In this document: in pieces, positions 15,411 through 60,445 of the stretch
Layout: every line of letters starts with the position of its first letter
How positions within the stretch are numbered: the stretch's first letter is position 1
NCBI GenBank assembly: GCA_947085505.1
Contig: CAMTWI010000004.1
Location: forward strand, 129,800 to 193,799
DNA: 64,000 bases
Direction: 5' to 3'
Source of the DNA: an uncultured bacterium
GTDB lineage: Bacteria > Patescibacteriota > Minisyncoccia > Phycocordibacterales > Phycocordibacteraceae
Made by a program: the position numbers and the translations under genes
Notes under the pieces: generated by a model
Database searches by the model: none
Seen by the model: only the letters and a program-made list of their open reading frames with translations
Told to the model about the DNA's origin: nothing

Positions 15411-16019
15411 TTGGGACTACTGACCACAGTACGTGAACGCGGCCTCTATTGGGCGACCGCACATGCGCTTCTATATGCATTCGATAAATTTGTAGAGTTC
15501 GTCGTAAGTCCTGCTGCAATTATCGACTTCGGTTTGGTGATGGGCACGGCCTTTCTGATGGCCTTCTCATTCGTCGTCTGCATTGTCCTCATAACTATCT
15601 ACGATTGGGTAGGTAACCAAGGAGTAAGAGATCTTCTTGGTTACGAGACAATAAGGAACATCGGCGGACGCTTTGGACGGCGACTTGGCCATCAAGCCAA
15701 TTCGCTCTGGGACAAGACCTTCAAACTCGGTGTATTCTTGTACCTCTCCATCATGAACGACCCCATGACTTGCACTCTAGTGCTTCGCGAGTCTGGTGTT
15801 TACAGGATGAGCAGAAAGGACTGGAGGAACTTCATTTGGAGCGTTATCGTCTCGAACGTCGCATGGGGACTTATGATTTGGGGAGGCTTCGGTCTTCTTG
15901 AAACATGGTTTCCGGAGGTGTCTGACAGCCTTAGATCACTAGCTTCTGGTTTTTGGGCCGTAATAAATGATCTTGTGGAATCACTGAAGCAGGGTTTGCT
16001 TTCATGGACCACAAACTAG
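15411..16019 (+). CDS. multi-pass membrane protein, function unknown
   Basis: TTG start 5 nt after AAAGGAGG; several hydrophobic helices. Confidence 0.55.
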   Translation: MGLLTTVRERGLYWATAHALLYAFDKFVEFVVSPAAIIDFGLVMGTAFLMAFSFVVCIVLITIYDWVGNQGVRDLLGYETIRNIGGRFGRRLGHQANSLWDKTFKLGVFLYLSIMNDPMTCTLVLRESGVYRMSRKDWRNFIWSVIVSNVAWGLMIWGGFGLLETWFPEVSDSLRSLASGFWAVINDLVESLKQGLLSWTTN

Positions 16020-16021
16020 CT

Positions 16022-16049
16022 GGGGGAGTTGAAAAACTCCCCCTTTCTG
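16022..16049 (+). terminator. intrinsic terminator
   Basis: GGGGGAGTT-GAAA-AACTCCCCC followed by TTTCTG. Confidence 0.75.
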
Positions 16050-16088
16050 TACCTATACGTGCTAGGATTTACACAAATACGCCAATCT

Positions 16089-16931
16089 ATGGCTAGAATC
16101 TCAACTAAAGACATCCCGTTTCTCAATCTCCTAAAAGGAGAGGTGCCTGAGCTTGAAGATTTTCTTACACCTCTTCCTTTGGCGCTAGAAGAGTTAGAGA
16201 GGAGACAAGGGGACAAAGATTTGCAACATAAAGTTGAGGCCTATTTACATAACGACATTCCAGAGCACTTTAGCAATGAGCCCATTCTTTACTTAGCGCG
16301 CCATATAGCAACACCTAACTTCGAGACCCTACGTTTCTTGCACCTCATTGAGCCGATTGGTCTTAAGACTGTTATTGGCCAGGATATAAAGGACAAGTTT
16401 GTACCCAAAAACCTACTGAAAAAATCACTGGCGAAGCTACCAGTATCAATGGGAGTTTCTTCAAAGAAGGGTGCATACCATGAATTATTCGAATACATTT
16501 CTATACTCGACTTTAATACAGCAAACGGTAAGCGGTTCGATGAAATCAAGACACACTGGGGAGAAGGCCTCTCGGACTTCCATCTGCGTCTTCTTAAAGA
16601 GCATGTGAAGTTCCCTGTATCAGTGGTTGATGAATCTGAATGGATAGACAGGAATAACCGTGGAGACTTACTTGAGCATTATAAAAAGTTTCTGGCTTTA
16701 TTTCTTGTTCATGGAATTCTGCTCGAAGACTATGCACTCGAAGACAAGGATGAAAAGCGTTTTATCTCTGAAATCCTAAAACCAGCCTATGATTTTATTG
16801 AGAACGAATTTGGTATCAAACCTTTGATTGCTCAACTCACCCCAACCTCTGTGGAGAGTTCTACGTTCTGGGTAAGTTACCCTCATGCTGTTAAACGTTC
16901 TATAGAAAACAGTCGGGAGGGACGTATATAG
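16089..16931 (+). CDS. hypothetical protein
   Basis: The track ORF start (16029) lies inside the preceding terminator, so the first ATG (MARISTKD) is used. No motif recognised. Confidence 0.5.
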   Translation: MARISTKDIPFLNLLKGEVPELEDFLTPLPLALEELERRQGDKDLQHKVEAYLHNDIPEHFSNEPILYLARHIATPNFETLRFLHLIEPIGLKTVIGQDIKDKFVPKNLLKKSLAKLPVSMGVSSKKGAYHELFEYISILDFNTANGKRFDEIKTHWGEGLSDFHLRLLKEHVKFPVSVVDESEWIDRNNRGDLLEHYKKFLALFLVHGILLEDYALEDKDEKRFISEILKPAYDFIENEFGIKPLIAQLTPTSVESSTFWVSYPHAVKRSIENSREGRI

Positions 16932-16943
16932 TATAATTAATAC

Positions 16944-17327
16944 ATGAAGCAACTTTTCAATATTCTGCTTGCGTTAGTCCTAGTTGGCGGCCTTTCATTC
17001 ACAGTAGTCGCCACGTATAACCGCATATTTGTTCAAGGAGACTATCAGCAAGAGTATGCGATTGCATGTAGCCCGCAAGACGCCTCATGCTTTAGCGAAG
17101 AAATATGTGATGAGGTTACCGAGGAGTGTACAACTGAATACTACGCATTAATGTCTCGCTCAGCAGCTACACTCAGAAAAGCTTGTGGCAATGATACGAG
17201 TAACTGTCTTGCTGCCCAATACTGCTTAGCTGATGAATTTAATTGCTCAGTTACATACTGTGACCCTGAAATAGAAGAGTGTACTAACATAAGTGCAGAG
17301 GAGGAGACGGTAGAGCTTAGTCCATGA
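16944..17327 (+). CDS. small Cys-rich membrane-anchored or secreted protein
   Basis: N-terminal hydrophobic helix and 12 Cys in an acidic region. TATAAT (16932-16937)-N6-ATG. 4-nt overlap with the next gene. Confidence 0.55.
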   Translation: MKQLFNILLALVLVGGLSFTVVATYNRIFVQGDYQQEYAIACSPQDASCFSEEICDEVTEECTTEYYALMSRSAATLRKACGNDTSNCLAAQYCLADEFNCSVTYCDPEIEECTNISAEEETVELSP

Positions 17328-18367
17328 CGGACACAGGGATGGTAAGGGTTTTCTATATCGGACTTCATCCTGGATCGCTTACTTTCATTAATAAGGATCC
17401 TTTTGAGGTTGTTGGTGTTTCCTACTTAGATTTTTTGGGGAAAGTCTCCATAAATCCTATTAACTCCTTATTTTCACTAGTCTATACAGTCCATAAAAGT
17501 AAATTGCCTCATGCGGTAACAATTGTTCTGTTTAGTTTATGGCAATCAATGCACTGGCTTACAACGGGATATCGATCCAGGTATAAAGACTACCTTAAAG
17601 AGGTCGTACTACGGAAAGTGGACATTGTTGATGCTGAACAACATGCCTCTATCGCAGATTTTATAAGTGAAAACAAAATAGACTTACTGCTAATAAATGG
17701 CTGGTCTTTGCTTCCAAAGGAGCTTGTTGTTCTGCCTCGTCTTGGGTGCATTAACGTACACCCGTCAATACTTCCCAAATATAGAGGTGCGCTTCCAACA
17801 TTATGGGCGCTTAAGAATAACGATACAGAGTCAGCCGTTTCACTTATTTTGCTTACAGCTGGGGTAGATACGGGACCGATGATTTCTCAGCGTAATTTCA
17901 AAATTGATTTTGATGACAATGCAATTTCTGTTGAAGGTAAAATTGATCAAGTACTAGAACAGCATTTATGGAGCGACATCCATGAGTATGTTACTGGTCA
18001 CGGGCAACAAATAGAGCAGGTGGGAGAAGTTTCTACGACCAGCAAATATGCAACGTACCGACAAGTACAGTGGCTTGAAGAGACGGCTAAAGATATTGTA
18101 AATAAAGTACTACTGTATCCTTTCTTCGAGCCTGGTCTGTATGTTCAAAGTACTCTTGGGAGGAGAGTTATACGAATAAAAAACGCTTCAGAGGCGCCAA
18201 CAGACGTTGACGTTAAGCCTGGAGTATACAAAATAATGTTGTATACGGTACTTATTAAAGCTAAAGAGGGAACAGTATTGTTACGGCTTTTCCGAGACGT
18301 TGGTGTGATGGATAGTCTTATCCTTTTATTCACGAAGCAACGAACAGTGGGCGAGCATTCATGCTAG
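17324..18367 (+). CDS. formyltransferase family protein (Fmt/ArnA-like)
   Basis: INVHPSILPKYRGALP (N-x-H catalytic motif) and GVDTGPM (Asp). A C-terminal Fmt-like domain is present. The N-terminal half is atypical and contains a hydrophobic insert. Confidence 0.7.
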   Translation: MTDTGMVRVFYIGLHPGSLTFINKDPFEVVGVSYLDFLGKVSINPINSLFSLVYTVHKSKLPHAVTIVLFSLWQSMHWLTTGYRSRYKDYLKEVVLRKVDIVDAEQHASIADFISENKIDLLLINGWSLLPKELVVLPRLGCINVHPSILPKYRGALPTLWALKNNDTESAVSLILLTAGVDTGPMISQRNFKIDFDDNAISVEGKIDQVLEQHLWSDIHEYVTGHGQQIEQVGEVSTTSKYATYRQVQWLEETAKDIVNKVLLYPFFEPGLYVQSTLGRRVIRIKNASEAPTDVDVKPGVYKIMLYTVLIKAKEGTVLLRLFRDVGVMDSLILLFTKQRTVGEHSC

Positions 18368-18377
18368 TATTTTTTGT

Positions 18378-20018
18378 ATGTTGTGTCCGTATCTGACTCC
18401 TCCACAGTACCTCGTCTTTGCAGAGGGAGTTCCAGCGCTTCTATATTATTCTCATATACCTGCAATAGTTATATCCGTGTTTATAGGGGCATTCATACTG
18501 TTCAAAAACCCCGGAGCACTATTAAATCGACTTCTTTCTTCGATAACTATTCTTTTCTCCCTTTGGGCGTTCTTTAATCTTGTTTTGTGGACTAGTGTTC
18601 ACAGCGATGTGATTGTTTTCCTTTGGTCTTTATTTGGCTTGCTGTATGGCCTTCTTGCAGTTACTAGCATTTATTTCATCACAGTATTCCTAACAAAGAA
18701 GGATGTAAGCTTCGTAGAGAAATGTGTGTATCTGGCCCTTCTGGCTCCGGTGCTCATTTTTACACCAACCGCATTCAATATAAGCGGATTTGATCTCGAT
18801 GTGTGTGGAAGCTCAGGATTTGAAGGGATTGAGTTTATTACTTACTACACGGGCTTAGGAGTAGTTGCTCTGATATGGATTACCGTCCTCCTGATTTATT
18901 GGTATAGGAAATCAGATTCTCTTTTTAGAAAGCAGATAGTCCCTATGGGTACTGGTTTGCTTCTTTTCCTTTCGACCTTCTTTGGTCTTGGCTATCTTGC
19001 CAGCTATCTCAATGACTTGGGTTTTGCTACCGATTACAGCATTGAGCAATACGGGCTCTTTGGTATGACCATATTTATGGGAGTAATCGCGTTTCTCATA
19101 GTTCGGTACCAGGCATTCAACGCAGGTATGCTTGCGGCTCAAGCGCTTGTGTTTGCGCTTATCTTCCTCATTGGCTCGCAGTTCGCTTTTGTAACATCTG
19201 ACATAAATCGAGTACTTGTTGCCATAACTCTAGTTCTTACAAGCGTAGCGGGTATTTACCTCATACGAAGTGTCCAAAGAGAAGTAATGCAGCGTGAGCG
19301 CATTGAAAAGCTTGCACGCGAGCTTGAAAAAGCAAACAAGCAGCAAGTTACGCTCATCCACTTCATCACGCACCAGATCAAAGGCTTCGTAACCAAATCA
19401 CGCAATATTTTCTCTCTTATGAAAGAAGGGGATCTTGGTCCAATTCCTGAAGCAATGAAGCCCATGATCGAGGAGGGATTCCGGTCTGACACAAAGGGTG
19501 TGAATACTATTCAGGAGATCTTGAATGCAGCAAACATTAAGAGCGGCAAGGTTGCGTACAGCAAGGAACCATTTGATCTTAAAGCGCTTGTAGACGAAAT
19601 CGGCACGGATCTCAAGACGGCTGCTGACACGAAGGGTCTTGCACTCAAACTTGAGACCGGTACAGAGCCGCTTATGTATCCTGGAGACAAGGGGCAGCTC
19701 GTTAATGCACTCAAGAATCTCATCGACAATTCAATCAAGTACACCCTAAAGGGAGAAGTGCGGGTGAAGCTTGCACAGGAAGGGAAGACTGTTCGCTTCA
19801 CTGTAGAAGACACGGGGGTTGGTATTACACAGGAAGATATGAAAAATCTCTTCACTGAAGGAGGTCATGGTGCGAACTCAGCCAAAATCAACGTTGAGTC
19901 TACCGGTTTCGGACTCTACATCGTGAAGAACATTGTTGAGGCTCATAACGGCAAGGTCTGGGCAGAGTCTAATGGAGAGGGTAAGGGCTCGCGGTTTATT
20001 GTGGAGCTTCCAGTTTAA
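18378..20018 (+). CDS. sensor histidine kinase with a polytopic N-terminal domain
   Basis: About 8 TM helices, H-box region LIHFITHQIKGF, HATPase_c (GFGLYIVKNIVEAHNGKVWAES). Confidence 0.85.
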   Translation: MLCPYLTPPQYLVFAEGVPALLYYSHIPAIVISVFIGAFILFKNPGALLNRLLSSITILFSLWAFFNLVLWTSVHSDVIVFLWSLFGLLYGLLAVTSIYFITVFLTKKDVSFVEKCVYLALLAPVLIFTPTAFNISGFDLDVCGSSGFEGIEFITYYTGLGVVALIWITVLLIYWYRKSDSLFRKQIVPMGTGLLLFLSTFFGLGYLASYLNDLGFATDYSIEQYGLFGMTIFMGVIAFLIVRYQAFNAGMLAAQALVFALIFLIGSQFAFVTSDINRVLVAITLVLTSVAGIYLIRSVQREVMQRERIEKLARELEKANKQQVTLIHFITHQIKGFVTKSRNIFSLMKEGDLGPIPEAMKPMIEEGFRSDTKGVNTIQEILNAANIKSGKVAYSKEPFDLKALVDEIGTDLKTAADTKGLALKLETGTEPLMYPGDKGQLVNALKNLIDNSIKYTLKGEVRVKLAQEGKTVRFTVEDTGVGITQEDMKNLFTEGGHGANSAKINVESTGFGLYIVKNIVEAHNGKVWAESNGEGKGSRFIVELPV

Positions 20019-36141: not shown

Positions 36142-37509
36142 ATGCAGATCCTACGCTCCTTAGTACTCGCCTTTTCTTTCCTTACCGCTTTCTCGCTTAT
36201 TGGCGCGATTGTACCGAGCGACGTACGTGCCCAGACTGAGGAACAGATTAAGAGCCAGATAAACGAACATGCCCAGCGCATCAAAGATCTCGAAAAGGAG
36301 ATCGCTGAGGCGGAGCGGCAGCGCACAATCCTGAACGGACAATCTCAGACGCTTCAAACCGCAATTAAATCGATTGATATCACCCGTAGGCAGACAACCT
36401 CGCAAATCGATCTAACGCAGAACAGAATTTCATCAACGAACCTAAAGCTCGAGGAACTTTCCTACAATATTCAAGACACCGAGCAGCTCATAGCGCTCGA
36501 CAAACGCACCATAGAGCAGTCCATTCGCAATATGGCAGAAGCTGCTGACGTCTCACTCGTTGAACAGGTGTTCGCCGCAGGTAACTTAACCGAAGCGTGG
36601 ACAGCCGTTGATGACGCAGCCTCACTCAATTCTGCACTTCGCGCGAATCTTGCAAATCTTGCAAAAGCAAAAGACGAACTTTCAAACCAGAAGCAGGACG
36701 TTGACGCAAAGAAGAACGAACTTACCTCACTCGCTACTGACCTTTCAACGCAAAAGCGTTCCTTGGACATTGCCAAGAGCGAGAAGGATAGACTCCTCGC
36801 GCAAACAAAGAATCAGGAGAGTGCATACCAGAATCTCATAGCAAAGAAGCAGGCAGAGAGGAGGATCTTTGAGCAAGCACTCTCAAGCCTTGAGAACAGT
36901 CTCACGTCTGTGGGACAGGGAGCGGCACCGGCGTCCCAGACCGGTGTGCTCGCATGGCCGTACTCCTCAACCTTTGCACAGAGTTGCGCAGGGAAGGCTG
37001 GCGCACTCGGGAACTCACGCTGCATAACGCAGTATTTCGGGAACACGGCGTTCGCAACCGCAAACTCGCAGATCTATAATGGCTCTGGACACAATGCCAT
37101 CGATATTGGCATGCCCGTTGGTACGCCGGTCCTTGCCGCACTCTCCGGAACCGTTGCAGGCACAGGGAACACCGACTCGGTTCCTGGTTGCTACTCTTTT
37201 GGGAAGTGGGTAGCGATAAAGCACGCGAACGGCCTTACAACCTCCTATTCGCATCTCTCTTCGATTTCAGTGTCAGCGGGCCAGACCGTTACCACCGGTC
37301 AGGTTATCGGAAATTCCGGTATGACTGGGTACGCAACTGGTCCACACCTCCATTTCAGCGTGTACGCGTCAGCTGGCTTCAAGATTATGGATCTTGGAAA
37401 CTGGAGAAGGCAGCAAGGACTTCCAACCGGGACTGGGTGTACTGCGGGAGGTGCCATTATGCCGGTTGCACCGCTTGATGCGTATTTGAATCCGATGTCA
37501 TATTTGTAA
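36142..37509 (+). CDS. M23 family peptidase with an N-terminal coiled coil (EnvC-like)
   Basis: Signal/TM segment, ~250-aa coiled coil, then M23 motifs GHNAIDIG and GPHLHFSV. Confidence 0.85.
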   Translation: MQILRSLVLAFSFLTAFSLIGAIVPSDVRAQTEEQIKSQINEHAQRIKDLEKEIAEAERQRTILNGQSQTLQTAIKSIDITRRQTTSQIDLTQNRISSTNLKLEELSYNIQDTEQLIALDKRTIEQSIRNMAEAADVSLVEQVFAAGNLTEAWTAVDDAASLNSALRANLANLAKAKDELSNQKQDVDAKKNELTSLATDLSTQKRSLDIAKSEKDRLLAQTKNQESAYQNLIAKKQAERRIFEQALSSLENSLTSVGQGAAPASQTGVLAWPYSSTFAQSCAGKAGALGNSRCITQYFGNTAFATANSQIYNGSGHNAIDIGMPVGTPVLAALSGTVAGTGNTDSVPGCYSFGKWVAIKHANGLTTSYSHLSSISVSAGQTVTTGQVIGNSGMTGYATGPHLHFSVYASAGFKIMDLGNWRRQQGLPTGTGCTAGGAIMPVAPLDAYLNPMSYL

Positions 37510-37534
37510 GTTCGATACCTAGTCTGCCAGCAAT
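37510..37534 (+). repeat. box copy R0, truncated (right part only)
   Basis: GTTCGATACCTAGTCTGCCAGCAAT starts directly after the M23 stop codon. It matches the box ends GTTC...CTGCCAGCAAT. Confidence 0.6.
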
Positions 37535-37602
37535 TCTTTTAAACCCCTATTGGGTGTAGTATTTAGATTAGAAGGCTGTTTGGGCCACAAGGAGAACTCA
37601 AG

Positions 37603-37851
37603 ATGTTTGATCCTCTTTTAGGCATGTCTGAAGAAGAGTACGAGGCAGAGCTGGTGCGTATGGCTGAGCAGAGCGACAATCCGAGCGCGAAGCGGTGGCT
37701 AGAATGCAGGAATGCGCCACCCCTCACTCTGAAGCAGACTGAGGAGATTCTCGTGCGAATGTCCGAGTACAACCCGGATGCGCCCGAGATACTTCGCAAA
37801 TTTCGACTCAAGCATGCGGACGAACTTGGAAGTGACGAGGCGGCTCCGTGA
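37603..37851 (+). CDS. cassette gene P1, hypothetical 82-aa acidic protein
   Basis: AAGGAG SD 8 nt upstream of the ATG; a hairpin spans the stop codon. Confidence 0.55.
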   Translation: MFDPLLGMSEEEYEAELVRMAEQSDNPSAKRWLECRNAPPLTLKQTEEILVRMSEYNPDAPEILRKFRLKHADELGSDEAAP

Positions 37852-37872
37852 GCCGCCTCAAAACTTTATATA

Positions 37873-37903
37873 GGTTCCAACATCGTCCCAGACTGCCAGC
37901 AAT
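37873..37903 (+). repeat. box copy R1 (consensus)
   Basis: GGTTCCAACATCGTCCCAGACTGCCAGCAAT. Confidence 0.9.
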
Positions 37904-37906
37904 GTT

Positions 37907-37915
37907 TGATAGAAT
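37907..37915 (+). promoter_or_regulatory. extended -10 promoter, leaderless P2
   Basis: TGaTAGAAT, then 6 nt to the ATG at 37922; begins 4 nt after box R1. Confidence 0.5.
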
Positions 37916-37921
37916 CTTGAT

Positions 37922-38359
37922 ATGGATGAACTCCTCGAACTCTTCCCGAAGGCTGTCGCATGGGCAGAGGACCATTCCGCTCAAATCCTGAAAGAGGGGA
38001 GATCGTTAACAGTAGAGGAGATGGAAGCGGCTAGGAGAGTGGGTGTCCAGCACCCAGAGAGCGTGCGCATCTCTGAAGTAACTGAACTCCCTAAGCCTGA
38101 GGACGAAGAGCTGCGAGCGGCAGCTCTCTCAATCGGCTTGCTTGGACCAACGATGATCGGGCTCACGCTTGGGTATGGCATCTATCTTGTACGTGGAAAT
38201 GAGACGAGGTTTATACCCCATGAGCTACGGCACGTGTATCAGTTTGAGCGCTTAGGATCGATTTCAAACTTTCTAACTGTTTATCTGCAGGAACTCCAGA
38301 AATTTGGTTACGCGAATGCGCCTCTTGAAGTGGATGCATCAAGGTACGAGCCTGTGTAA
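37922..38359 (+). CDS. cassette gene P2, HExxH-motif protein (putative zinc metallopeptidase-like)
   Basis: 145 aa with GYGIYLVRGNETRFIPHELRHVYQFERLG. The HELRH motif and its context recall DUF4157-type domains (from memory, not searched). Confidence 0.55.
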   Translation: MDELLELFPKAVAWAEDHSAQILKEGRSLTVEEMEAARRVGVQHPESVRISEVTELPKPEDEELRAAALSIGLLGPTMIGLTLGYGIYLVRGNETRFIPHELRHVYQFERLGSISNFLTVYLQELQKFGYANAPLEVDASRYEPV

Positions 38360-38362
38360 GTA

Positions 38363-38393
38363 GGTTTCAACATAGTCCCAGACAGCCAGCAAC
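38363..38393 (+). repeat. box copy R2 (4 mismatches)
   Basis: GGTTTCAACATAGTCCCAGACAGCCAGCAAC. Confidence 0.8.
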
Positions 38394-38445
38394 AAATAAC
38401 AAAAGCCGCCCAACAAAGTCGAACGACTTCTGTAGGCGGCAGCGG

Positions 38446-38841
38446 CTAGAACCGATATGAGGTTTGCTCGAGCCCGACCTTCTTTTCGGCGGGCCTCTTG
38501 CCGTAGCCGAGACCGAACATCAGAAGGAAGGCGGCCCCGCAGATCGCCAGGGAGCCGGCATTCAGCTGAAGCGCGAGGAGGGCCGGCGTTTCGTCTTCCA
38601 TGGCAGTCCTCAGGGTGAGGACGGGTAAGAGACCGAATACCAGTCCCAGCACACCGCCTTTCGAGCGTTGAAAGCCCGCATACCAGACCAGCAGGGTCCA
38701 GAGCAGCACGAGCACAAAGAAGATGGGTGTGAAGGACCAGGCGGCGATTGGCTCGGCCACGGGCGGATAGAACCCGAGGAAGAGTCCGGACAGCAGCATG
38801 AGAAGCGGCATCCAGATCATGAAGCTACTTTTGACGTACAT
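38446..38841 (-). CDS. cassette gene P3, small membrane protein
   Basis: Start at MYVKSSFMIW with a GGGAGA SD; 4 hydrophobic helices. The track N-terminal extension reads through the repeat and is discarded. Confidence 0.55.
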   Translation of the reverse strand: MYVKSSFMIWMPLLMLLSGLFLGFYPPVAEPIAAWSFTPIFFVLVLLWTLLVWYAGFQRSKGGVLGLVFGLLPVLTLRTAMEDETPALLALQLNAGSLAICGAAFLLMFGLGYGKRPAEKKVGLEQTSYRF

Positions 38842-38934
38842 TGCGTTTCTCCCGCAAGTTGTTTCCTTTGTGAATATATATTTAAATCTAGAAAAGTAAA
38901 GATGCTTCGGTATGTGTCTCTTATAGAGGCATGT

Positions 38935-38975
38935 GTTGCAGAAAGGTTCCAACATCGTCCCAGACTGGCAGCAAT
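38935..38975 (+). repeat. box copy R3 with GTTGCAGAAA extension
   Basis: GTTGCAGAAA + GGTTCCAACATCGTCCCAGACTGGCAGCAAT (1 mismatch). Confidence 0.9.
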
Positions 38976-38977
38976 AC

Positions 38978-39006
38978 ATAAAGCGAAAGAGGCACCGAAG
39001 TGCCCC
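38978..39006 (-). terminator. intrinsic terminator of P4
   Basis: On the minus strand: GGGGCAC-TTCG-GTGCCTC followed by TTTCGCTTTAT. Confidence 0.7.
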
Positions 39007-39008
39007 TG

Positions 39009-39230
39009 TCAGAGAATTAATATCTCCCTCTCTCGTAGACCGGCTTCGGTCTGATTGATGGGTTGCAGTGTGCTGCCTGCGTCTCTCTCCTGCAAAAGCA
39101 GGGAATACAGATCAAGTGCGGCACGAACGGTTGAACTTTTTGATTCAGCGTTTGTATCGACTTGAATCCTTTCAATACGCTGCATGTCCTTCTCAGAGAG
39201 GACAAGCTGCAGGCGCGCTGTCAGAGCCAT
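39009..39230 (-). CDS. cassette gene P4, ribbon-helix-helix (CopG/Arc-like) DNA-binding protein
   Basis: 73 aa. N-terminal beta-strand-like LQLVLSEKDMQRIERI followed by STVRAALDLY helices. AGGAGG SD. Confidence 0.6.
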   Translation of the reverse strand: MALTARLQLVLSEKDMQRIERIQVDTNAESKSSTVRAALDLYSLLLQERDAGSTLQPINQTEAGLREREILIL

Positions 39231-39249
39231 GAGTTCCTCCTGAAAATAC

Positions 39250-39311
39250 TCTAGACAGAACGTACCATATGTTGCAGAAAGGGTCCAACATCGTCCCAGA
39301 CTGCCAGCAAT
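39250..39311 (+). repeat. box copy R4 with full promoter module
   Basis: TCTAGACAGAACGTACCATATGTTGCAGAAAGGGTCCAACATCGTCCCAGACTGCCAGCAAT. On the minus strand this reads TTGGAC, 18 nt spacer, TGgTACGTT. Confidence 0.9.
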
Positions 39312-39344
39312 AGAAATACTCCCCACCTTTCGATGGGAAGTATT
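39312..39344 (-). terminator. intrinsic terminator of P5
   Basis: On the minus strand: AATACTTCCCA...TGGGGAGTATT followed by TCTATT. Confidence 0.6.
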
Positions 39345-39374
39345 ATGGCAACACTGACTTGATGAAGTGGCGAG

Positions 39375-39872
39375 TTAAGCGTCAGATGTGCTGATTCGCT
39401 CTCCAAAGTCCCAGTTGAACTTCGATCTTCTAAAGCGGCCCTTGCCGATACTGAACATAAAGCTCGGCCGCGTGAAGACTTTCAAGTCGGTCTCTACAGC
39501 ATCAGGAATGCACTGGTAGTAGAACATGAGCCTGTGCGGCTCTCTGTGCCGGTCAACCGAAAGGCACAACATGAGCGCGTCGCCAGTGCCGCTTCGAATC
39601 GTCAGCTGCAGCTTATACGAACGCCGCCACACGTCTTCGGAAACTTCTGATAGCAAGTATCTTTTCCGATTGTTCATTGCTTCCTCGACTTCTTCATGTG
39701 GAAATGAAACTGTCGAGTAATCGTAGGTAGTTTTATCCTCACAGGTAAGGACTTCGATCTGAGCGCCCGGGACGTACTGTTGAACAAGTGTAGAGAGTCG
39801 GCGTGCTGACTCCAGGAACTCGTTGAGTCCAATAGCCAGTAGTAAACGGTTATCGCGACTGAATCTAGACAC
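39375..39872 (-). CDS. cassette gene P5, hypothetical 165-aa protein
   Basis: GTG start with an ACGGAGA SD; no motif recognised. Confidence 0.5.
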   Translation of the reverse strand: MSRFSRDNRLLLAIGLNEFLESARRLSTLVQQYVPGAQIEVLTCEDKTTYDYSTVSFPHEEVEEAMNNRKRYLLSEVSEDVWRRSYKLQLTIRSGTGDALMLCLSVDRHREPHRLMFYYQCIPDAVETDLKVFTRPSFMFSIGKGRFRRSKFNWDFGERISTSDA

Positions 39873-39903
39873 TATTATTCTCCGTGTTGGTACAAAACCT
39901 TTA

Positions 39904-39934
39904 TATATAATAGTTCATTATTGACATTTGTCAA
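39904..39934 (-). promoter_or_regulatory. P5-specific promoter with a palindromic -35
   Basis: On the minus strand: TTGACAAATGTCAA (perfect palindrome containing TTGACA), then an AT-rich -10 (ATTATA/TATATA) 17-19 nt downstream. Confidence 0.5.
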
Positions 39935-39950
39935 ACATAAGCCGTAGAAA

Positions 39951-39981
39951 GGTTCCAACATCGTCCCAGACTGGCAGCAAT
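39951..39981 (+). repeat. box copy R5
   Basis: GGTTCCAACATCGTCCCAGACTGGCAGCAAT (1 mismatch, same variant as R3). Confidence 0.9.
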
Positions 39982-40021
39982 AAAATAGGAAAACCGCGTG
40001 AACGGAATTCCGTTACGCGGT
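39982..40021 (-). terminator. intrinsic terminator of P6
   Basis: On the minus strand: ACCGCGTAACGGAATTCCGTTCACGCGGT followed by TTTCCTATTTT. Confidence 0.75.
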
Positions 40022-40030
40022 AACAAGCTA

Positions 40031-40444
40031 TTAAGGGTGGTACGACCTCCATAACTTCCTCCACGGTTGGTAGAGCAGAAATATAATCACACCAACCAGC
40101 GCCGAATTCGCCCCGAGTAGGAAGAAGTAGGCGAACCAACAACACTCCTTGGCGTAAAAGTAACGGGGAAGTTTGTAGTAGCACCTGACAAGGCTCGGGT
40201 CAGGGGCACCGGAGGCGCGAAGAGCCTCTGCTTCCCTCATGTATTCAGCAATCGTTGCGTGCATAAAGGTAAAGAAAACCGCCGCAACGCCGATGTATTC
40301 AATTCCGCCCTTTCGTGTGACGAGTGCCACAGCGATAAGGACGCTGAGTACAACCCCGCCCTCGACCTGATATGTACGGCACCCGAAAGCCCTTTTGATC
40401 TTTTCGACCAAGAAGACGGGTACGTATGCCAATGATCTTGCCAC
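40031..40444 (-). CDS. cassette gene P6, small membrane protein
   Basis: GTG start 5 nt after AAGGAGG; 137 aa with 3-4 hydrophobic helices. Confidence 0.55.
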   Translation of the reverse strand: MARSLAYVPVFLVEKIKRAFGCRTYQVEGGVVLSVLIAVALVTRKGGIEYIGVAAVFFTFMHATIAEYMREAEALRASGAPDPSLVRCYYKLPRYFYAKECCWFAYFFLLGANSALVGVIIFLLYQPWRKLWRSYHP

Positions 40445-40461
40445 AATGGCCTCCTTGTTTA

Positions 40462-40523
40462 TCTAGACAGAACGTAGCATACGTTGCAGAAAGGTTCCAA
40501 CATCGTCCCAGACAGCCAGCTAT
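40462..40523 (+). repeat. box copy R6 with full promoter module
   Basis: TCTAGACAGAACGTAGCATACGTTGCAGAAAGGTTCCAACATCGTCCCAGACAGCCAGCTAT. On the minus strand this reads TTGGAA, 18 nt spacer, TGcTACGTT. AACGTA-GCA-TACGTT is a perfect palindrome. Confidence 0.9.
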
Positions 40524-40562
40524 ACAAAGCAGAAGAGGAGACCCGCTCATGGGTCTCCTCTT
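40524..40562 (-). terminator. terminator-like hairpin overlapping the P7 stop
   Basis: AAGAGGAGACCC / GGGTCTCCTCTT stem; CTGCTTTGTATA follows on the minus strand. Confidence 0.5.
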
Positions 40563-40921
40563 GATTTCTTGCGCTTAAGTCTGCGCGCAGCATTTCGCTT
40601 TTGTCGTTCAAGCTGTGGGCGTAAGTACTCAAACTTTCCAAGATGCATGAAGCCGCTGTACGTTCCGATTAGTGGGTGCGGCCAAAGTCCACACTCACGA
40701 ACCATTTGCTCAGTGGCAATGACCTTCGGAAACTCACCGTGCCAGGTTAATGAAGGCCGGCGATGTGCTCGTTCTGGTGGCGTACATTCGGAACAAAGAG
40801 CCGTTACTTTCGAATGATCCTTCACGAGAAGTCCATAGAACTTACCGGTCGATTTCAGGAACGATGTTCCTAATGCAGTGTTCTCTATACCACTGCACTC
40901 ATCACAAATGAAAAGTGGCAT
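40547..40921 (-). CDS. cassette gene P7, CxxC...CxxC zinc-ribbon-like protein with a basic tail
   Basis: 124 aa; CDEC and CSEC pairs; C-terminal RQKRNAARRLKRKKSR; GGGAGA SD. Confidence 0.55.
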   Translation of the reverse strand: MPLFICDECSGIENTALGTSFLKSTGKFYGLLVKDHSKVTALCSECTPPERAHRRPSLTWHGEFPKVIATEQMVRECGLWPHPLIGTYSGFMHLGKFEYLRPQLERQKRNAARRLKRKKSRGDP

Positions 40922-40937
40922 TGATGTTCTCCCTGTA

Positions 40938-40975
40938 TCTAGACAGAACCTACCACGTGTTGCAGAAGGGTTCCA
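40938..40975 (+). repeat. box copy R7, truncated (promoter module plus first 7 nt of the box)
   Basis: TCTAGACAGAACCTACCACGTGTTGCAGAAGGGTTCCA ends 3 nt before the alkA stop codon. On the minus strand it reads CTGGAA, 18 nt spacer, TGgTAGGTT. Confidence 0.8.
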
Positions 40976-40978
40976 GCT

Positions 40979-41620
40979 TTAAGCGTCCCGGACACGCCAC
41001 AACACCTTTGACGCAAACGTCCGATGCGGAGACCACCGGAGAGCAATAACTTCGAGCTCCTGTACGGCAACATCTTTAGGTAATCCATAGAGACTCTCCA
41101 TAGAACGCCTTAGTCCTAAATCTCCCAGAGAGAACACATCCTCTCGTTCAAGTGCGAACATAAGAAACATTTCCGCAGTCCAGCGGCCAATACCCCACAC
41201 CGAAGAAAGTCTTGTTATGGCTTCTTTCTCAGGAATCTTCCGGAGTGCGGGCAAATCAAGTTCTCCCTTAAGCACCGCTTTCGACAATTCCTTAAGAGTC
41301 TTTGATTTAGCTGCAGAGAGCCCGGCCTTACGCATCGTTGGCAGACGGAGCTTTTGAATAGCTTCGGGTGTAACCTCTCCCTTACACGCAACAACGAGCC
41401 GTTCCCATATAGTGTCGGCGGCTTTCGTTGAGAGTTGTTGGCCCGTTACGCTCGCTGCAAGAGAGGAGAAGAGCTTCTGTCCGGAGTAGCGTCGTTGCGC
41501 CGTGGAGCGGGGAACGAAGTGATCCTTTAGAGGCAGCGCCGCTCTATGTAGTATTGGGTCCGCTTTCTTCAGATGAAGAAGGGCAGCCGCTACGTGCACA
41601 TCGTGCTTCTTTGAAGGCAT
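40979..41620 (-). CDS. alkA: DNA-3-methyladenine glycosylase II family (HhH-GPD)
   Basis: HhH-GPD region SSVWGIGRWTAEMFLMFALEREDVFSLGDLGL. Start at MPSKKHD after TATACT-N7. Confidence 0.8.
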   Translation of the reverse strand: MPSKKHDVHVAAALLHLKKADPILHRAALPLKDHFVPRSTAQRRYSGQKLFSSLAASVTGQQLSTKAADTIWERLVVACKGEVTPEAIQKLRLPTMRKAGLSAAKSKTLKELSKAVLKGELDLPALRKIPEKEAITRLSSVWGIGRWTAEMFLMFALEREDVFSLGDLGLRRSMESLYGLPKDVAVQELEVIALRWSPHRTFASKVLWRVRDA

Positions 41621-41642
41621 CGAGACTAGTATACTGGAGGCA

Positions 41643-41840
41643 ATGGTACGATTCATCATCCTCATAATCATATTGATCCTTGCGCTGTCTTATTTCGGCA
41701 TTTCGATTCGCGATATAGCACAATCGCCAACAGGAGAAGATAACTTCACCTTTGTCTGGAACTACGTGAAGGACGGGTGGGAGATCATAACTGCCATTCT
41801 CGCTGGTCTTATCGAGGCCGTTCGAAACGTATTCTCATAA
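41643..41840 (+). CDS. small membrane protein
   Basis: 65 aa with an N-terminal TM helix (FIILIIILILALSYF). Divergent from alkA, with which it shares the palindromic AGTATACT. Confidence 0.45.
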   Translation: MVRFIILIIILILALSYFGISIRDIAQSPTGEDNFTFVWNYVKDGWEIITAILAGLIEAVRNVFS

Positions 41841-46385: not shown

Positions 46386-46540
46386 ACAATTACTTTCTAA
46401 TGAACAGGTCGTACATATAATACTACAAAAACATACGTACGTAAAGTATTCAAGCTGACTCGATATAGTTGTGTATATTGTGTGGAAAAATGCACAAGTT
46501 GTGTATTGTCGCTCATACAGACGGGGTGTACGATACATCT

Positions 46541-47233
46541 ATGACAAAGCTCGTTGCACTCACTCCAGCACAGAAAGAAACACTCACGCTTATTCAAAAA
46601 CACACGGAGAAGCATGGACAGGCTCCAACCATCACGGAGATGCGTGACACACTGAAGCTCCGTTCACTCAGAAGTGTTACGCAGCGTATCGAGAGCCTTG
46701 AGAAGAAGGGACTTATAACAAGGAATCGTTTTCAGCATCGCGGCATCGCTCTTCTTGAAGGCGTGGGGTCCCAGCTTTCGTCCGACCTCATCCAGGTCCC
46801 GGTTATAGCCTCCGCTGGTTGCGACGCTATGGATGTGTATGCAGAGCAAAGCTTCGGCGAGTACATCGTTATAGACCGAAGCCTCATTGGAGGCCGTCGA
46901 GAGAGCACGAATATCGCAGCGGTACGCGCCGTAGGGGACTCCATGCAGGATGCAGGGATCCATAGCGGCGACTACGTTATCGTTGAGGTTACGGATCAAG
47001 TTGAGAATGGGGACAGGGTAGTGGCCATCCTCGGAAACATGGCTGTTATTAAGCGCTTTGAGCGGGTTGATGAGGTTGTATACCTCAATCCTGAGAATAG
47101 ATACGGTACCTATCACCCGATTGTTGTGCGTGAAGAGGATTCAAAGGTGTTTGGGAAGGTTCTTTCAATAATCCCTGGCACTGAGTGGGTGGACGATATT
47201 AAGATTGAGTACTATACCGAGCAGGCGCTCTAG
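46541..47233 (+). CDS. lexA: LexA-family repressor (S24 peptidase)
   Basis: N-terminal winged HTH (LTPAQKETLTLIQKH...PTITEM). S24 catalytic region AVGDSM...VVAILGNMAVIKRF. Confidence 0.88.
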   Translation: MTKLVALTPAQKETLTLIQKHTEKHGQAPTITEMRDTLKLRSLRSVTQRIESLEKKGLITRNRFQHRGIALLEGVGSQLSSDLIQVPVIASAGCDAMDVYAEQSFGEYIVIDRSLIGGRRESTNIAAVRAVGDSMQDAGIHSGDYVIVEVTDQVENGDRVVAILGNMAVIKRFERVDEVVYLNPENRYGTYHPIVVREEDSKVFGKVLSIIPGTEWVDDIKIEYYTEQAL

Positions 47234-59392: not shown

Positions 59393-60445
59393 CTATTCCT
59401 CCCTATTTCCCGGCTTATCCAGGAGTTCCACCTCAAGCCCTATCTTCTCCTCGGTTATCCGGTAGACGTCCTTTTCAACTTTCCCGAGCTCCTTGTACCC
59501 ACTGTTGTAGTGCGATACGGCGGTTCCAAGGGCTGCCCCGAGCTTCTGATAGTAGGTCTCATAGGCCCCCAGATGCTTCCCAAGCTCACCCACGCGCTTC
59601 TGGATCTCTTCGGCCCGCTTCTCGATCTGAAGGGCCTTCAGGCCCTGCATAACGGTCTGGAGATAGGCGAGGAAGGATGTTGGCGAGACGATAATCACCT
59701 TGAACTTCCCAGCCGCACGTTGGATGAGATTCTCGTCCTCTCCCGCACCTACTTGGTTTGTGAGGAGGTCGTAGTAGATACCTTCCGACGGAATGAACAT
59801 GAACGCGAAGTCCATAGTTCCCTCTTCAGGACGGATGTACTTAGCAGTCTCAGAAATTCTAAGTTTTAGATCGTTCACGAACGCTTTCTCGAGCGCTATG
59901 CGTTCTGCACCCTCTGCATGAATGTAGCGGTTGTAGTTGTCGAGAGAGAACTTTGAGTCGACCGGTACAATCTTGTCGTTGATATACACCGCAGCGTCGA
60001 CAACCTCTCCGTTCTCGAACATGTGCTGCATCTTGAACATGCCTGGCGGCAAGACATTCTTAAGAACGGTCTCCAAGTAGTACTCGCCGAGAATACCGCG
60101 CTGTTTCGGATTCTTTAGGATGTCCTGAAGATTCTTTAACTGCTCCGCGAACTTCCCCGTCTCACGCCCGATCTCCTTAACAGAAGTTATCTCTGCCGTT
60201 ATCTCTTTTATGAGTCTTGAGGACTCTCCAAGCTGGCTACGAACGGTCTCGTGCATCTGCTTCGAAGACTCGTTCATACGGGAATCCAAGGAACGCTCGA
60301 GCTTCTCCATCTGATTCTGTATAAGTATGAGCCCTCCCTCGTCCTTAGGTTTATCGTTCTCACGACGACGGAGCATAAGCCACAGTCCAATCCCCTGCAG
60401 AAAGACAAGCACAAGAACGATTATGGCAACGGTGAAGATATCCAT
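59393..60445 (-). CDS. rmuC: DNA recombination protein RmuC
   Basis: N-terminal TM helix, long coiled coil, C-terminal RmuC nuclease-like region (FAFMFIPSEGIYYDL). TATACT-N6-ATG. Confidence 0.85.
   Translation of the reverse strand: MDIFTVAIIVLVLVFLQGIGLWLMLRRRENDKPKDEGGLILIQNQMEKLERSLDSRMNESSKQMHETVRSQLGESSRLIKEITAEITSVKEIGRETGKFAEQLKNLQDILKNPKQRGILGEYYLETVLKNVLPPGMFKMQHMFENGEVVDAAVYINDKIVPVDSKFSLDNYNRYIHAEGAERIALEKAFVNDLKLRISETAKYIRPEEGTMDFAFMFIPSEGIYYDLLTNQVGAGEDENLIQRAAGKFKVIIVSPTSFLAYLQTVMQGLKALQIEKRAEEIQKRVGELGKHLGAYETYYQKLGAALGTAVSHYNSGYKELGKVEKDVYRITEEKIGLEVELLDKPGNREE

Follow-up and report, generated by a model that had tools for sequence, protein, structure and literature searches.

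Between a gene for an M23 peptidase (36142..37509, plus strand; Pfam Peptidase_M23, E=4e-28) and the convergent gene of an HhH-GPD, alkA-like DNA glycosylase (40979..41671, minus strand; Pfam HhH-GPD, E=2e-14), the 64 kb stretch of DNA analysed here, which we call the window, carries seven small genes set apart by copies of a 31-nt box, aagGTTCCAACATCGTCCCAGACtGCCAGCaa. The locus raises the question of what the box is and how the genes came to lie between its copies. The initial annotation had proposed a recombination-built cassette array that matches neither CRISPR, a classical integron nor a REP family, and had left the box undecided between a regulator site, a recombination site and a mobile promoter. 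We consider it probable that the interval 37510-40975 represents a hypervariable seven-cassette array, one instance of a capture system widespread in Patescibacteria (Paceibacteria and relatives) in which the box is an att-type site; the recombinase is unidentified.

Boxes and small genes of the interval

Six full copies of the box, all on the plus strand, lie between the two anchor genes, together with two terminal part-copies. Box 1 (37873..37903) equals the consensus, box 3 (38945..38975), box 4 (39281..39311) and box 5 (39951..39981) have one mismatch each, and box 6 (40493..40523) has two; the chance expectation for such matches is 0. Pattern and profile searches recovered these five, and a repeat search recovered box 1 as well. 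The degenerate box 2 (38363..38393, four mismatches) was found by repeat and core searches, as was a right-part copy at 37518-37534, and it scored 30 bits in the profile search. At the distal end (40938..40975, plus strand) the array closes with the leftward module of P7 and a GGTTCCA stub (40969-40975), both covered by a 67-nt repeat family, D1. The stub breaks off 3 nt short of the alkA stop codon (40979-40981), a junction that is identical in the close relative L011. A profile search of the whole window found no box copy beyond this set. The positions and common orientation of the copies in the initial annotation are thus borne out, as are its distal extension with 7 nt of box near the alkA stop and its statement that the 64 kb hold no other copy.

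All seven genes are orphans in Pfam and NCBIfam scans. On the plus strand, P1 (37603..37851, 82 aa) has a Shine-Dalgarno sequence and no PHROG match, and P2 (37922..38359, 145 aa) has an HExxH motif (HELRH) and a weak match to phrog_37302 (E=2e-4). The remainder are on the minus strand: the hydrophobic P3 (38446..38841, 131 aa), P4 (39009..39230, 73 aa; weak phrog_8557 match), P5 (39375..39872, 165 aa), the membrane-like P6 (40031..40444, 137 aa) and P7 (40547..40921, 124 aa), which has two CxxC pairs and matches phrog_11861 (E=5e-8). Terminator-like hairpins accompany P3 (38399-38433), P4 (38988-39007) and P7 (40533-40562). The M23 gene and P1 are also adjacent in an independent assembly, and P5 and P4 in an independent contig.

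In our interpretation, rightward genes rely on extended -10 promoters that need no -35 element, and on leaderless starts, because units start directly past ...CAGCAA. The extended -10 element of P2, TGATAGAAT (37907..37915, plus strand), lies 4 nt past box 1, and the ATG follows 6 nt further, a leaderless start. Among 209 rightward cassette genes, 92 have TGnTAnnnT (7.9 expected), with the start codon 6-8 nt downstream in 82 of the 92. The -10 element falls 5-14 nt past the box and the start a median of 21 nt past it. P5, a leftward gene, has its own TTGACA-N16-TATTAT promoter (39907-39934). P4 is preceded by a putative promoter/leader module of family D1 (39250..39280, minus strand; TCTAGACAGAACGTACCATATGTTGCAGAAA on the plus strand), and the copy upstream of P6 (40462..40492, minus strand) matches the reference copy at 91% identity. 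On the minus strand the P4 module offers an extended -10, TGGTACGTT, and TTGGAA, the reverse complement of the left end of the box, could serve as its -35. The pattern is observed; that the module is a promoter is our inference, as is the interpretation that leftward genes can use the box edge as their -35. Across genomes, 37 of 417 boxes have the module, and in 29 of these cases the gene is leftward. A secondary promoter contribution of the box on its leftward side is plausible.

The array head and tRNA-Gln

The array begins at the stop codon of the M23 gene with GTTCGATACCTAGTCTGCCAGCAAT (37510..37534, plus strand). The initial annotation took this segment for a truncated box; it is instead an orphan fragment of a tRNA-Gln 3' end, aligning with tRNA-Gln genes over the T-loop, the 3' strand of the T-stem, the 3' strand of the acceptor and the discriminator. 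It is not a tRNA gene. The head is conserved behind the M23 stop codon in five genomes, and the sequences diverge directly past ...CAGCAAT; the diagnostic bases of heads are likewise retained in five genomes. The head of L069 matches genuine tRNA-Gln genes at 25/25 positions of their 3' end, and L127 carries an intermediate variant. We propose that the head is the primary (attB/attI-like) site.

Elsewhere, an array starts either from a tRNA-Gln gene, at its 3' end, or from an orphan piece of that end 22-25 nt long, and many heads, that of the window included, are fragments away from any tRNA gene. About half of the tRNA genes in the fetched blocks (20/39) are tRNA-Gln, and every one of these 20 has a co-oriented box 320-2276 nt downstream. 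When arrays cut by a block edge are excluded, 57 of 75 show, one unit ahead of their first box, a site that resembles the tRNA-Gln 3' end. In the genome loci all 44 such sites have boxes downstream, 0 have them upstream, and none lies inside an array; in the metagenome set 15 of 17 are upstream of boxes and the remaining 2 have no box nearby. Alignment of the consensus sequences places GGTTC and CCnAGnCTnCCAGCAA in both the box and the tRNA-Gln 3' end (tAgGTTCGATcCCTAgTCTcCCAGCAa); the box differs by an insert of 5 nt. On this comparison, the 31-nt box derives from the tRNA-Gln 3' end. The cassette array proposed in the initial annotation is supported; the tRNA-Gln origin of the box, the tRNA-Gln array starts and the clade-wide spread were not visible from the window.

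Spread and turnover of the arrays

We fetched 180 stretches, 94 from 52 Patescibacteria/CPR genomes and 86 from metagenome contigs. They hold about 500 copies of an identical 24-28-nt box core: the window and the 94 genome loci together have 266 box copies, the 86 metagenome loci 235. The idea that the box is specific to the M23-alkA locus was rejected; it is a clade-wide element of Patescibacteria/Paceibacteria. The 24-nt core is unchanged between genomes with only about 62-71% identity in their DnaX, Dus and SerRS proteins. Copies always occur in co-oriented arrays, whose units are roughly 540 bp long (median 542 bp) and mostly hold a single gene; a genome has several such arrays, located where housekeeping genes meet. 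Within each array all boxes point one way, the sole mixed locus being two separate arrays, and this direction agrees with that of the head. After the head, each unit comprises a promoter of its own, a small gene (usually just one, on either strand) and often a terminator, followed by one box. The cargo, which includes NUDIX, HAD, GNAT and histidine phosphatase genes and many orphans, resembles that of accessory-gene cassettes.

Arrays with the same anchors differ in content between relatives. Orthologues of the M23 gene anchor arrays in L011, L009, L037 and L069, and alkA-like orthologues stand at the far end in L011, L009 and L058; among related genomes, the number of boxes in the interval is 1, 2, 7 or about 10. 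The window and L011 share 99% amino acid identity in M23 and 92-94% nucleotide identity in the flanks, yet P7 is their only common cassette: homology is lost right behind the head and regained at the left edge of box 6. L138 and L142 (92-95% nucleotide identity) differ by exactly one box-bounded unit. Blocks of box-to-box similarity were found between different genomes, hotspots and orders, and homologous cassettes with exact box boundaries are present in different arrays and genomes. A box at hundreds of unrelated sites genome-wide, or an interval invariant across relatives, would have refuted the cassette array of the initial annotation. Neither is the case: no single genome has more than 21 copies in the retrieved blocks, all in a few co-oriented arrays, and the breakpoints of the variable interval fall at head and box. 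This confinement and turnover support the array.

Origin of the arrays and known systems

Our best reading, an inference, is that circular cassettes were inserted one after another at an att site derived from a tRNA; integrases classically target tRNA 3' ends. A circular cassette with one box would recombine with the head or a resident box, under a recombinase supplied in trans and encoded elsewhere (not identified). If the crossover lies in the right end common to head and box (...CCAGCAA), the head would retain the true tRNA sequence and each inserted unit would end in a full box. Repeated insertion would yield a co-oriented array, and box-by-box recombination would delete or reshuffle units. 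The crossover position is inferred from the head/box asymmetry only; co-variation of box variants and cassettes gave too few informative pairs. Motif screens of all ORFs of 185 loci and the window for a recombinase beside arrays yielded only a pair of XerC/D-type orthologues, both from the same syntenic hotspot; the genes that recur beside arrays resemble housekeeping genes. The sequences searched yielded no circular cassette, and no autonomous element or phage with the box. These negative results count against the proposal, as do the lack of dyad symmetry (by inspection) and of a hairpin in the box, and the orphan tRNA-Gln fragments at many non-tRNA loci, the window too, which require a seeding mechanism that has not been demonstrated.

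Every observed polymorphism runs from box to box, and RecA-dependent recombination between identical 31-35-nt repeats could also yield all the observed indels and shuffles. The box might then be merely a conserved, portable homology segment, its tRNA-Gln likeness a fossil of the first element; cassettes would pass between cells by DNA uptake and be exchanged, deleted or duplicated by RecA-type recombination, without a dedicated recombinase. That no dedicated recombinase was found near any array, and that the box lacks the dyad symmetry a core site should show, agrees with this possibility, which we think unlikely without dismissing it. Identity-driven recombination needs only matching partners, so boxes should drift by lineage, whereas the same 24-28-mer is kept across deeply diverged genomes. 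The strict head/box asymmetry (44/44, 15/17) and tRNA-gene anchoring are hallmarks of attB x attP recombination, head and box have only about 11-17 contiguous nt in common, and, by our reasoning, linear DNA with two box arms replaces units but cannot add them. An origin as decayed scars, in which larger elements or prophages repeatedly integrated and decayed at tRNA-Gln and left att sites with no ongoing cassette mobility, has precedent in tRNA-seeded islands with scattered partial tRNAs; L100 has a classic partial tRNA-Gln duplication, and a phage-like contig has a tRNA-Gln with the same 3' end. We find it scarcely credible for units that are uniform, small and mainly one intact gene with its own promoter, in which no integrase fragments were seen. 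The boxes, moreover, are one specific derived sequence rather than true tRNA copies, identical across deep divergence, and unrelated arrays have single cassettes in common with exact box boundaries.

The tight spacing of gene starts and -10 elements from the box, and TTGGAA at -35 distance from the conserved leftward module, would suit a transcriptional element, either a promoter upstream element or a global-regulator operator of accessory genes, with the cassette layout as a by-product. This is improbable in our judgement: box direction is fixed within arrays but gene direction varies (99 same, 52 opposite), and about 45% of boxes precede a convergent gene's 3' end or terminator, not a promoter. 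Rightward promoters, being of the extended -10 type, make a -35 unnecessary, inspection found no -35-like hexamer at the right distance inside the box, and tRNA-Gln heads and unit-wise turnover would be unexplained. A CRISPR-like array with 'spacers' the size of genes, made by an unknown casposase/Cas1-like or transposase-like integrase that inserts box-less DNA into a box through staggered cuts of about 31 nt and so doubles the box each time, could account for a repeat within the CRISPR size range, one per insert and strictly co-oriented, and for box quality that falls mildly with rank from the head, which makes growth from one end plausible. We give such target duplication very little credence, since the head is never duplicated, no type-A sites lie inside arrays, and cluster annotation and Pfam scans of subsets revealed no cas1-like or transposase gene near arrays. 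Variant left edges of the box travel with the left unit (ATGGCTCC in L138; shared left flanks in L004/L043), which fits units carrying their own box. Overall the evidence favours a recombination site among the three roles left open initially, the leftward promoter role remaining a plausible secondary one.

As in integrons, the arrays are made of small cassettes, most with a single gene and each with one recombination-type site in the common orientation. They have a distinct primary site at the head, turn over unit-wise between close relatives, share cassettes with other arrays, and carry small accessory enzymes and orphans. The absence of an array-associated recombinase and of a box hairpin means that this is not a classical integron. 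Sedentary chromosomal integrons and CALIN arrays, which have no integrase, were also compared; IntI is absent beside the array, the head is a tRNA-Gln 3' end rather than attI, cassettes carry their own promoters in either orientation, and a genome has several arrays, at housekeeping-gene junctions. Typical tyrosine-recombinase core sites and attC are expected to show dyad symmetry or a hairpin; the box, by inspection, has no dyad symmetry and no hairpin, and is an unstructured 31-mer conserved in sequence whereas attC hairpins are conserved in structure. In tRNA-anchored islands (Prochlorococcus tycheposons, or CIMEs that arise by tandem accretion of att-flanked elements) partial tRNA copies separate serial integrations. 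The arrays are similarly tRNA-seeded, with separators akin to partial tRNA 3' ends; as in tycheposon islands, newer units plausibly push older ones outward, and the genomes are streamlined with few classical mobile elements. Tycheposons, however, carry integrases and replication genes, whereas the units here, about 0.5 kb long, have a single gene and no integrase. The separator is a fixed, clade-wide derivative with a 5-nt insert and not a true tRNA copy, many heads lie off tRNA genes, and no cognate autonomous element was found.

The PeSL cassettes of T4-type phages, in which promoter and stem-loop motifs flank small ORFs and allow modular shuffling, also place a short, conserved intergenic motif near promoters and terminators, beside small novel ORFs and at shuffling breakpoints. 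PeSLs are phage promoters and terminators that act through homologous recombination; the box is chromosomal, tRNA-derived, locked in orientation and separable from promoters. Xer-dependent modules (IMEX elements at dif, pdif modules of Acinetobacter plasmids) are likewise integrase-less, with short recombination sites and a host tyrosine recombinase in trans, and the one recombinase observed close to an array belongs to the XerC/D type. By inspection, however, the box does not have the 11-6-11 dyad architecture, its copies are all direct rather than alternating, and the Xer adjacency concerns one hotspot among about 180 arrays. We found no published description of such a cassette system. The array design recurs in many bacteria of the candidate phyla radiation, and it looks like an undescribed, integron-like system of gene capture.

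The box and its tRNA-Gln heads

The 31-nt repeat reported in the initial annotation for the interval between the M23 peptidase and HhH-GPD glycosylase (alkA) genes was recovered by our search. Copies start at positions 37873, 38945, 39281, 39951 and 40493 of the window, all on the plus strand and with 0-2 mismatches, where none would be expected by chance. Repeat and core searches yielded three further elements: a copy at 38363 with 4 mismatches, a right-hand part at 37518-37534, and a 67-nt family that takes in a leftward extension and the stub GGTTCCA (40969-40975), which ends 3 nt short of the alkA stop codon. A profile search of the window found no further box, in agreement with the claim that no copy lies elsewhere in the 64 kb. 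The array is flanked by the M23 peptidase and HhH-GPD glycosylase genes and encloses seven ORFs (P1 and P2 on the plus strand, P3-P7 on the minus strand), none of which matched a Pfam or NCBIfam family. A weak Rfam sucA-II match on the minus strand at 37661-37863, which overlaps P1 and scores 17.5 bits where the gathering threshold is 70 (E = 0.62), is almost certainly due to chance.

Among GTDB species-representative genomes, 94 stretches contain an exact 24-mer of the box. Going by the record titles, all of them belong to Patescibacteria (Paceibacterota/Parcubacteria, Nomura-, Kaiser-, Wolfe- and Berkelbacteria, with some labelled Saccharibacteria), and there were no matches in 2.9 million viral contigs. 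A profile built from the 24-mer matches identified 266 box copies in these 94 loci and the window, and an independent metagenome scan added 235 copies in 86 contigs. The sequence is near-invariant in the profile search. Its core is identical even between genomes that share only about 62-71% protein identity in DnaX, Dus and SerRS, and the box is therefore strongly constrained, or horizontally spread, or both.

Box orientation is uniform in every array, genomic or metagenomic, all sites being direct; the sole mixed-orientation locus (L048) consists of two arrays 4.7 kb apart. The copies are also clustered, with six full and two partial copies at a single locus in the window and at most 21 per genome in the retrieved blocks. 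Scatter over hundreds of unrelated sites, which would have made the box a generic repeat, is excluded by this arrangement in clustered, co-oriented arrays. We considered whether the box derives from the 3' coding end of alkA by att duplication, and rejected this origin: the alkA orthologues in two related loci, L009 and L058, keep the C-terminus VLWRxRD without an adjacent box, so the resemblance of the box to the end of alkA is native alkA sequence or chance.

In many loci a tRNA-Gln gene lies downstream of dnaX, and its 3' end is nearly equal to the apparent half box of the window. ARAGORN identified 39 tRNA genes in the fetched blocks, 20 of them for tRNA-Gln, and a co-oriented box occurs 320-2276 nt downstream of all 20 of the latter. 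A site resembling the tRNA-Gln 3' end precedes the first box by one unit in 57 of the 75 arrays that are not cut by a block edge. This head is either a full tRNA-Gln gene or an orphan fragment of 22-25 nt that starts at the T-loop and in many cases directly joins the stop codon of the gene before it. Heads are true copies of the tRNA 3' end (0-3 mismatches). In the genome loci, boxes lie downstream of 44/44 head sites with at most 3 mismatches and upstream of 0/44; in the metagenome set 15 of 17 head sites have boxes downstream, and the other two have no box within 1.5 kb. The head consensus, tAgGTTCGATcCCTAgTCTcCCAGCAa, and the box consensus, aagGTTCCAACATCGTCCCAGACtGCCAGCaa, share GGTTC and 13 of 16 right-hand positions when aligned, with a 5-nt insert in the box, and a variant head in one locus (L127), GGTTCCAAACCTAAACTGCCAGCAAT, is intermediate between the two.

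The element at 37510-37534 was at first taken for the right part of a box. It is instead an orphan tRNA-Gln head of 25 nt, like the orphan heads at other loci; the 64-kb window contains no tRNA-Gln gene. A head of this type is kept after the M23 stop codon in five genomes, which diverge immediately after ...CAGCAAT. A partial-tRNA match of heads or boxes was sought at a permissive Rfam threshold and none was obtained, the sequences being too short. At another locus (L100, 7773-7945) a full tRNA-Gln gene is followed 42 nt on by a 57-nt partial copy of itself (D-arm to 3' end) and then by boxes. This tandem is a classic integration footprint with a different duplication boundary, more 5' than that of the orphan heads. 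In viral data the head sequence was seen in one phage-like contig only (L099, IMGVR_UViG_3300000881_000002), where a tRNA-Gln(TTG) at 3628-3702 has 3' 23 nt identical to array heads. That contig also encodes a small terminase subunit and a Toprim/DnaB-type primase-helicase, and has neither box nor integrase within the 8.5 kb examined.

Anatomy and cargo of the units

From box to box the median unit is 542 bp long (10-90% range 319-974); 114 of 167 units contain one ORF, and the genes run in the direction of the box in 99 cases and against it in 52. Gene positions were also compiled around 417 boxes. In 205 cases a same-strand gene starts to the right of the box, at a median of 21 nt beyond ...CAGC; in 186 cases a convergent gene ends there, at a distance of about 52 nt that would accommodate a terminator. 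To the left lies either the stop codon of a same-strand gene, a median of 7 nt before the box (207 cases), or the start of a leftward gene about 50 nt away (158 cases).

An extended -10 element, TGnTAnnnT, stands between the box and the start codon of 92 of 209 rightward genes, compared with 7.9 expected, and in 82 of those 92 the start codon follows it by 6-8 nt; a Shine-Dalgarno-like motif was present in only nine. This short distance and the near absence of Shine-Dalgarno motifs suggest, as a prediction from sequence, that leaderless mRNAs are widespread in these CPR genomes. In the window, P2 follows the rightward design, with its extended -10 and start region at 37907-37924. A leftward module of about 33 nt, TCTAGACAGAAC...TTGCAGAAAGG (also written TCTAGACAGAACSTASCAYAYGTTGCAGAAAGG), is conserved at 37 boxes in other loci and occurs in the window at 39250-39280, 40462-40492 and 40938-40968, with P4, P6 and P7. 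What the initial annotation called the upstream extension is this module, a second conserved element present at 37 of the 417 boxes. It travels with unrelated leftward cassette genes across genomes, its conservation reaches past the -10/-35-like parts, and it is probably a portable promoter/leader. P5 (39375-39872) has its own TTGACA/TATTAT promoter, and P3, P4 and P7 have terminator-like hairpins. A sigma-54 or ECF promoter at the minus-strand edge of the box (TGGAAC...TGCA) was considered and rejected on inspection, the GG/GC spacing being one nt short of the sigma-54 rule.

The cargo of 146 cassette proteins is mostly orphan proteins and small enzymes. Among the best 25 of 55 families the enzymes are led by NUDIX (8), HAD (4) and histidine phosphatase (3), followed by GNAT, DUF218, PIG-L, cupin and others. 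P2 (37922-38359) contains an HExxH motif (HELRH) and may, if this motif is a guide, be a small metallopeptidase. In P7 (40547-40921) there are two CxxC pairs, and the protein has a match in a phage orphan family (phrog_11861, E = 5e-8). In one locus (L010, 3500-3770) the first unit behind the head lacks an ORF; its minus strand shows a promoter of the TTGACA type, some 230 nt of GC-rich sequence and a hairpin terminator, and the unit may represent a cassette-borne gene for a small RNA.

Turnover and assembly of the arrays

The interval between the M23 gene and alkA is a syntenic hotspot that holds one box in L011, two in L009, seven cassettes in the window and about ten boxes in L058 and L037 together. 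An invariant interval, named in the initial annotation as grounds for abandoning the cassette interpretation, is thereby excluded, and the alignment of relatives proposed there uncovered differences in cassette content with breakpoints at head and box. The M23 proteins of L011 and the window are 99% identical and the flanking DNA is 92-94% identical; P7 is the only cassette in common, and the two sequences cease to be homologous directly behind the head and are so again from the left edge of the box that precedes P7. In a pair of metagenome contigs with 92-95% identity, one has exactly one unit more than the other (box-844 nt-box versus a single box); the lone box of the shorter contig has the left side of one of the two boxes and the right flank of the second. 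Between more distant genomes, many blocks of similarity are bounded precisely by boxes: they end 0-4 nt from a box edge, and their neighbours are unrelated. Homologous cassettes (HAD, NUDIX, several orphan families) appear at different hotspots and in different orders.

Exact-protein look-ups for strain-level variants returned only short contigs of the same study with the same adjacencies, alkA not being on record. The cassette adjacencies of the window are reproduced on Logan contigs of about 1 kb from the same organism (L095-L098, short-read runs ERR3478703/06/09), and a 13-kb short-read contig carrying M23 and P1 ends about where the first box begins. Because of these observations, we consider that the boxes probably cause assembly breaks and that they may contribute to the fragmentation of CPR assemblies. 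One stretch with a box near each end (L163) was evaluated as a circular cassette and rejected, since its termini differ.

We infer that the arrays would be built by serial site-specific integration, because they are anchored at tRNA 3' ends, are strictly co-oriented, have a distinct head and turn over unit by unit. Since the heads have retained genuine tRNA sequence, and a complete box closes every unit, the crossover between head and box would fall to the right of the last difference between them, within ...CCAGCAA, and the mobile unit would consist of content plus box. A unit boundary right after the box would also explain the promoter design: a rightward gene could not bring its own -35 and would depend on an extended -10, and a leftward gene could use TTGGAA at the box edge. 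Box quality falls mildly with rank from the head, from 42.8 to about 33-35 bits, which is compatible with insertion at the head, with ascertainment bias a possibility. Co-variation of box variants with homologous cassettes could not be used to locate the crossover, the eight pairs being too few and too diverged. Homologous recombination between boxes nonetheless remains a serious rival, because we found no array-linked recombinase, no hairpin or evident dyad, no circles in the assembled sequence and, in viral contigs and fetched loci, no autonomous element bearing the box; it may well act alongside site-specific insertion.

The dedicated recombinase that the initial annotation suggested looking for was not found in linkage with the arrays: motif screening, which covered every ORF of 185 loci and of the complete window, yielded only one pair of XerC/D-type orthologues. 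These Pfam-confirmed tyrosine recombinases (L010 4198-5190 and L127 5434-6507, both on the minus strand, 77% identical) are encoded in one syntenic hotspot, at the distal end of the array, where the stop codon of each gene directly adjoins the last box; their position could be a coincidence of that hotspot. Recurrent array neighbours look like housekeeping genes in the representative sequences inspected (dnaX, Dus, an FtsQ-like protein, SerRS, an ABC ATPase). No integrase was present among the families listed for the 146 cassette proteins (best 25 of 55) or in the motif screens, no unit in any array bears an integrase, and no autonomous element with the box was found in viral contigs or fetched loci, plasmid collections being outside the scope. 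The sequence ARRLSTLVQQ in P5 fits a loose serine-recombinase catalytic pattern and was rejected for lack of Pfam support.

Eighteen mid-size ORFs of the window were scanned and were housekeeping-like or without match. A low-GC stretch at 16000-19000 (0.41 versus about 0.51 elsewhere), with a formyltransferase-like gene at 17324-18367 and an orphan at 16029-16931, may be a separately acquired region. This small CPR genome also has a LexA homologue (LexA DNA-binding domain and S24 peptidase, 46469-47233) and a gene for an RmuC family protein (59393-60445).

In its full form, the proposal is of an undescribed, integron-analogous system of gene capture in Paceibacteria and related CPR bacteria, in which a dedicated, as yet unidentified recombinase would act on an unstructured, tRNA-Gln-derived 31-nt site and insert self-expressed single-gene cassettes at tRNA-Gln genes or their orphan fragments, providing the main route of accessory-gene flux in these episymbionts with streamlined genomes. 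We judge this proposal to have an even chance of being correct.

Significance and comparison with known systems

Patescibacteria are abundant episymbionts with tiny genomes, and to our knowledge few mobile elements have been identified in them. A cassette system that spans the clade and has tens of units in each genome would account for accessory-gene exchange in CPR bacteria. The invariant 24-28-mer offers a tag for mining CPR accessory genes from metagenomes, much as attC sites have been used to recover cassettes. If a dedicated recombinase exists, it recognizes a long, asymmetric duplex site and would be of interest for genome engineering. The promoter architecture, with its extended -10 elements and leaderless starts, has apparently been shaped by the position of the recombination junction.

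CRISPR arrays consist of 28-37-nt direct repeats, 26-72-nt spacers, a leader and cas genes. The length of the box fits such repeats, but the inter-repeat units are gene-coding and, with a median of 542 bp, unlike spacers, and there are no cas-like genes among the recurrent neighbour families, so that the dismissal of a CRISPR array stands. Repeats of the REP/BIME or MITE type are palindromic or hairpin-forming and occupy hundreds of intergenic sites in both orientations; the box is not one of these, having no hairpin and being clustered in co-oriented arrays. A dif-type site is 28 nt long, with two 11-nt imperfect inverted arms and a 6-nt spacer, and is found in modules with alternating site orientation, whereas inspection of the box revealed no such dyad (the repeat search gave no internal inverted repeat) and its sites are all direct. 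For CIME-type or hitcher elements, which are att-flanked and lack a recombinase, a cognate integrase-bearing element with the box was not found in viral contigs or arrays.

Closer parallels exist in tRNA-seeded islands such as tycheposons, where partial tRNAs separate serial integrations. At 20 tRNA-Gln genes in other genomes the array does start at the 3' end of the tRNA gene; in the window it starts at a 25-nt orphan fragment, with no tRNA-Gln gene in the 64 kb. The arrays differ from such islands in that their units are about 0.5 kb long, single-gene and without integrase, that what separates these units is one fixed derivative of the tRNA end, and that many heads are orphan fragments.

Integrons have intI beside the array, attC sites that are imperfect inverted-repeat hairpins of conserved structure and variable sequence, and a Pc promoter that drives mostly promoterless, co-oriented cassettes. 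The arrays have no adjacent IntI, their cassettes lie in either orientation with their own terminators and extended -10 or TTGACA-type promoters, and the box is near-invariant in sequence without attC structure. Tested for an attC-like hairpin, the box showed no folding beyond that of shuffled controls on either strand, whether or not its extension was included (z = +0.2 to -0.3). The earlier verdict that this is not a classical integron is therefore upheld: there is no intI beside the arrays, no attC hairpin and no set of cassettes under a common promoter. What the arrays share with integrons is a primary site and, after it, a co-oriented site for each cassette; the cargo is likewise small and accessory, and it turns over rapidly. 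No publication in the literature collection searched reports the motif or arrays of this kind in CPR bacteria, and we rate the arrays as undescribed as such while combining traits of known kinds; they link integron-like cassette arrays with tRNA-seeded islands, which are usually treated separately.
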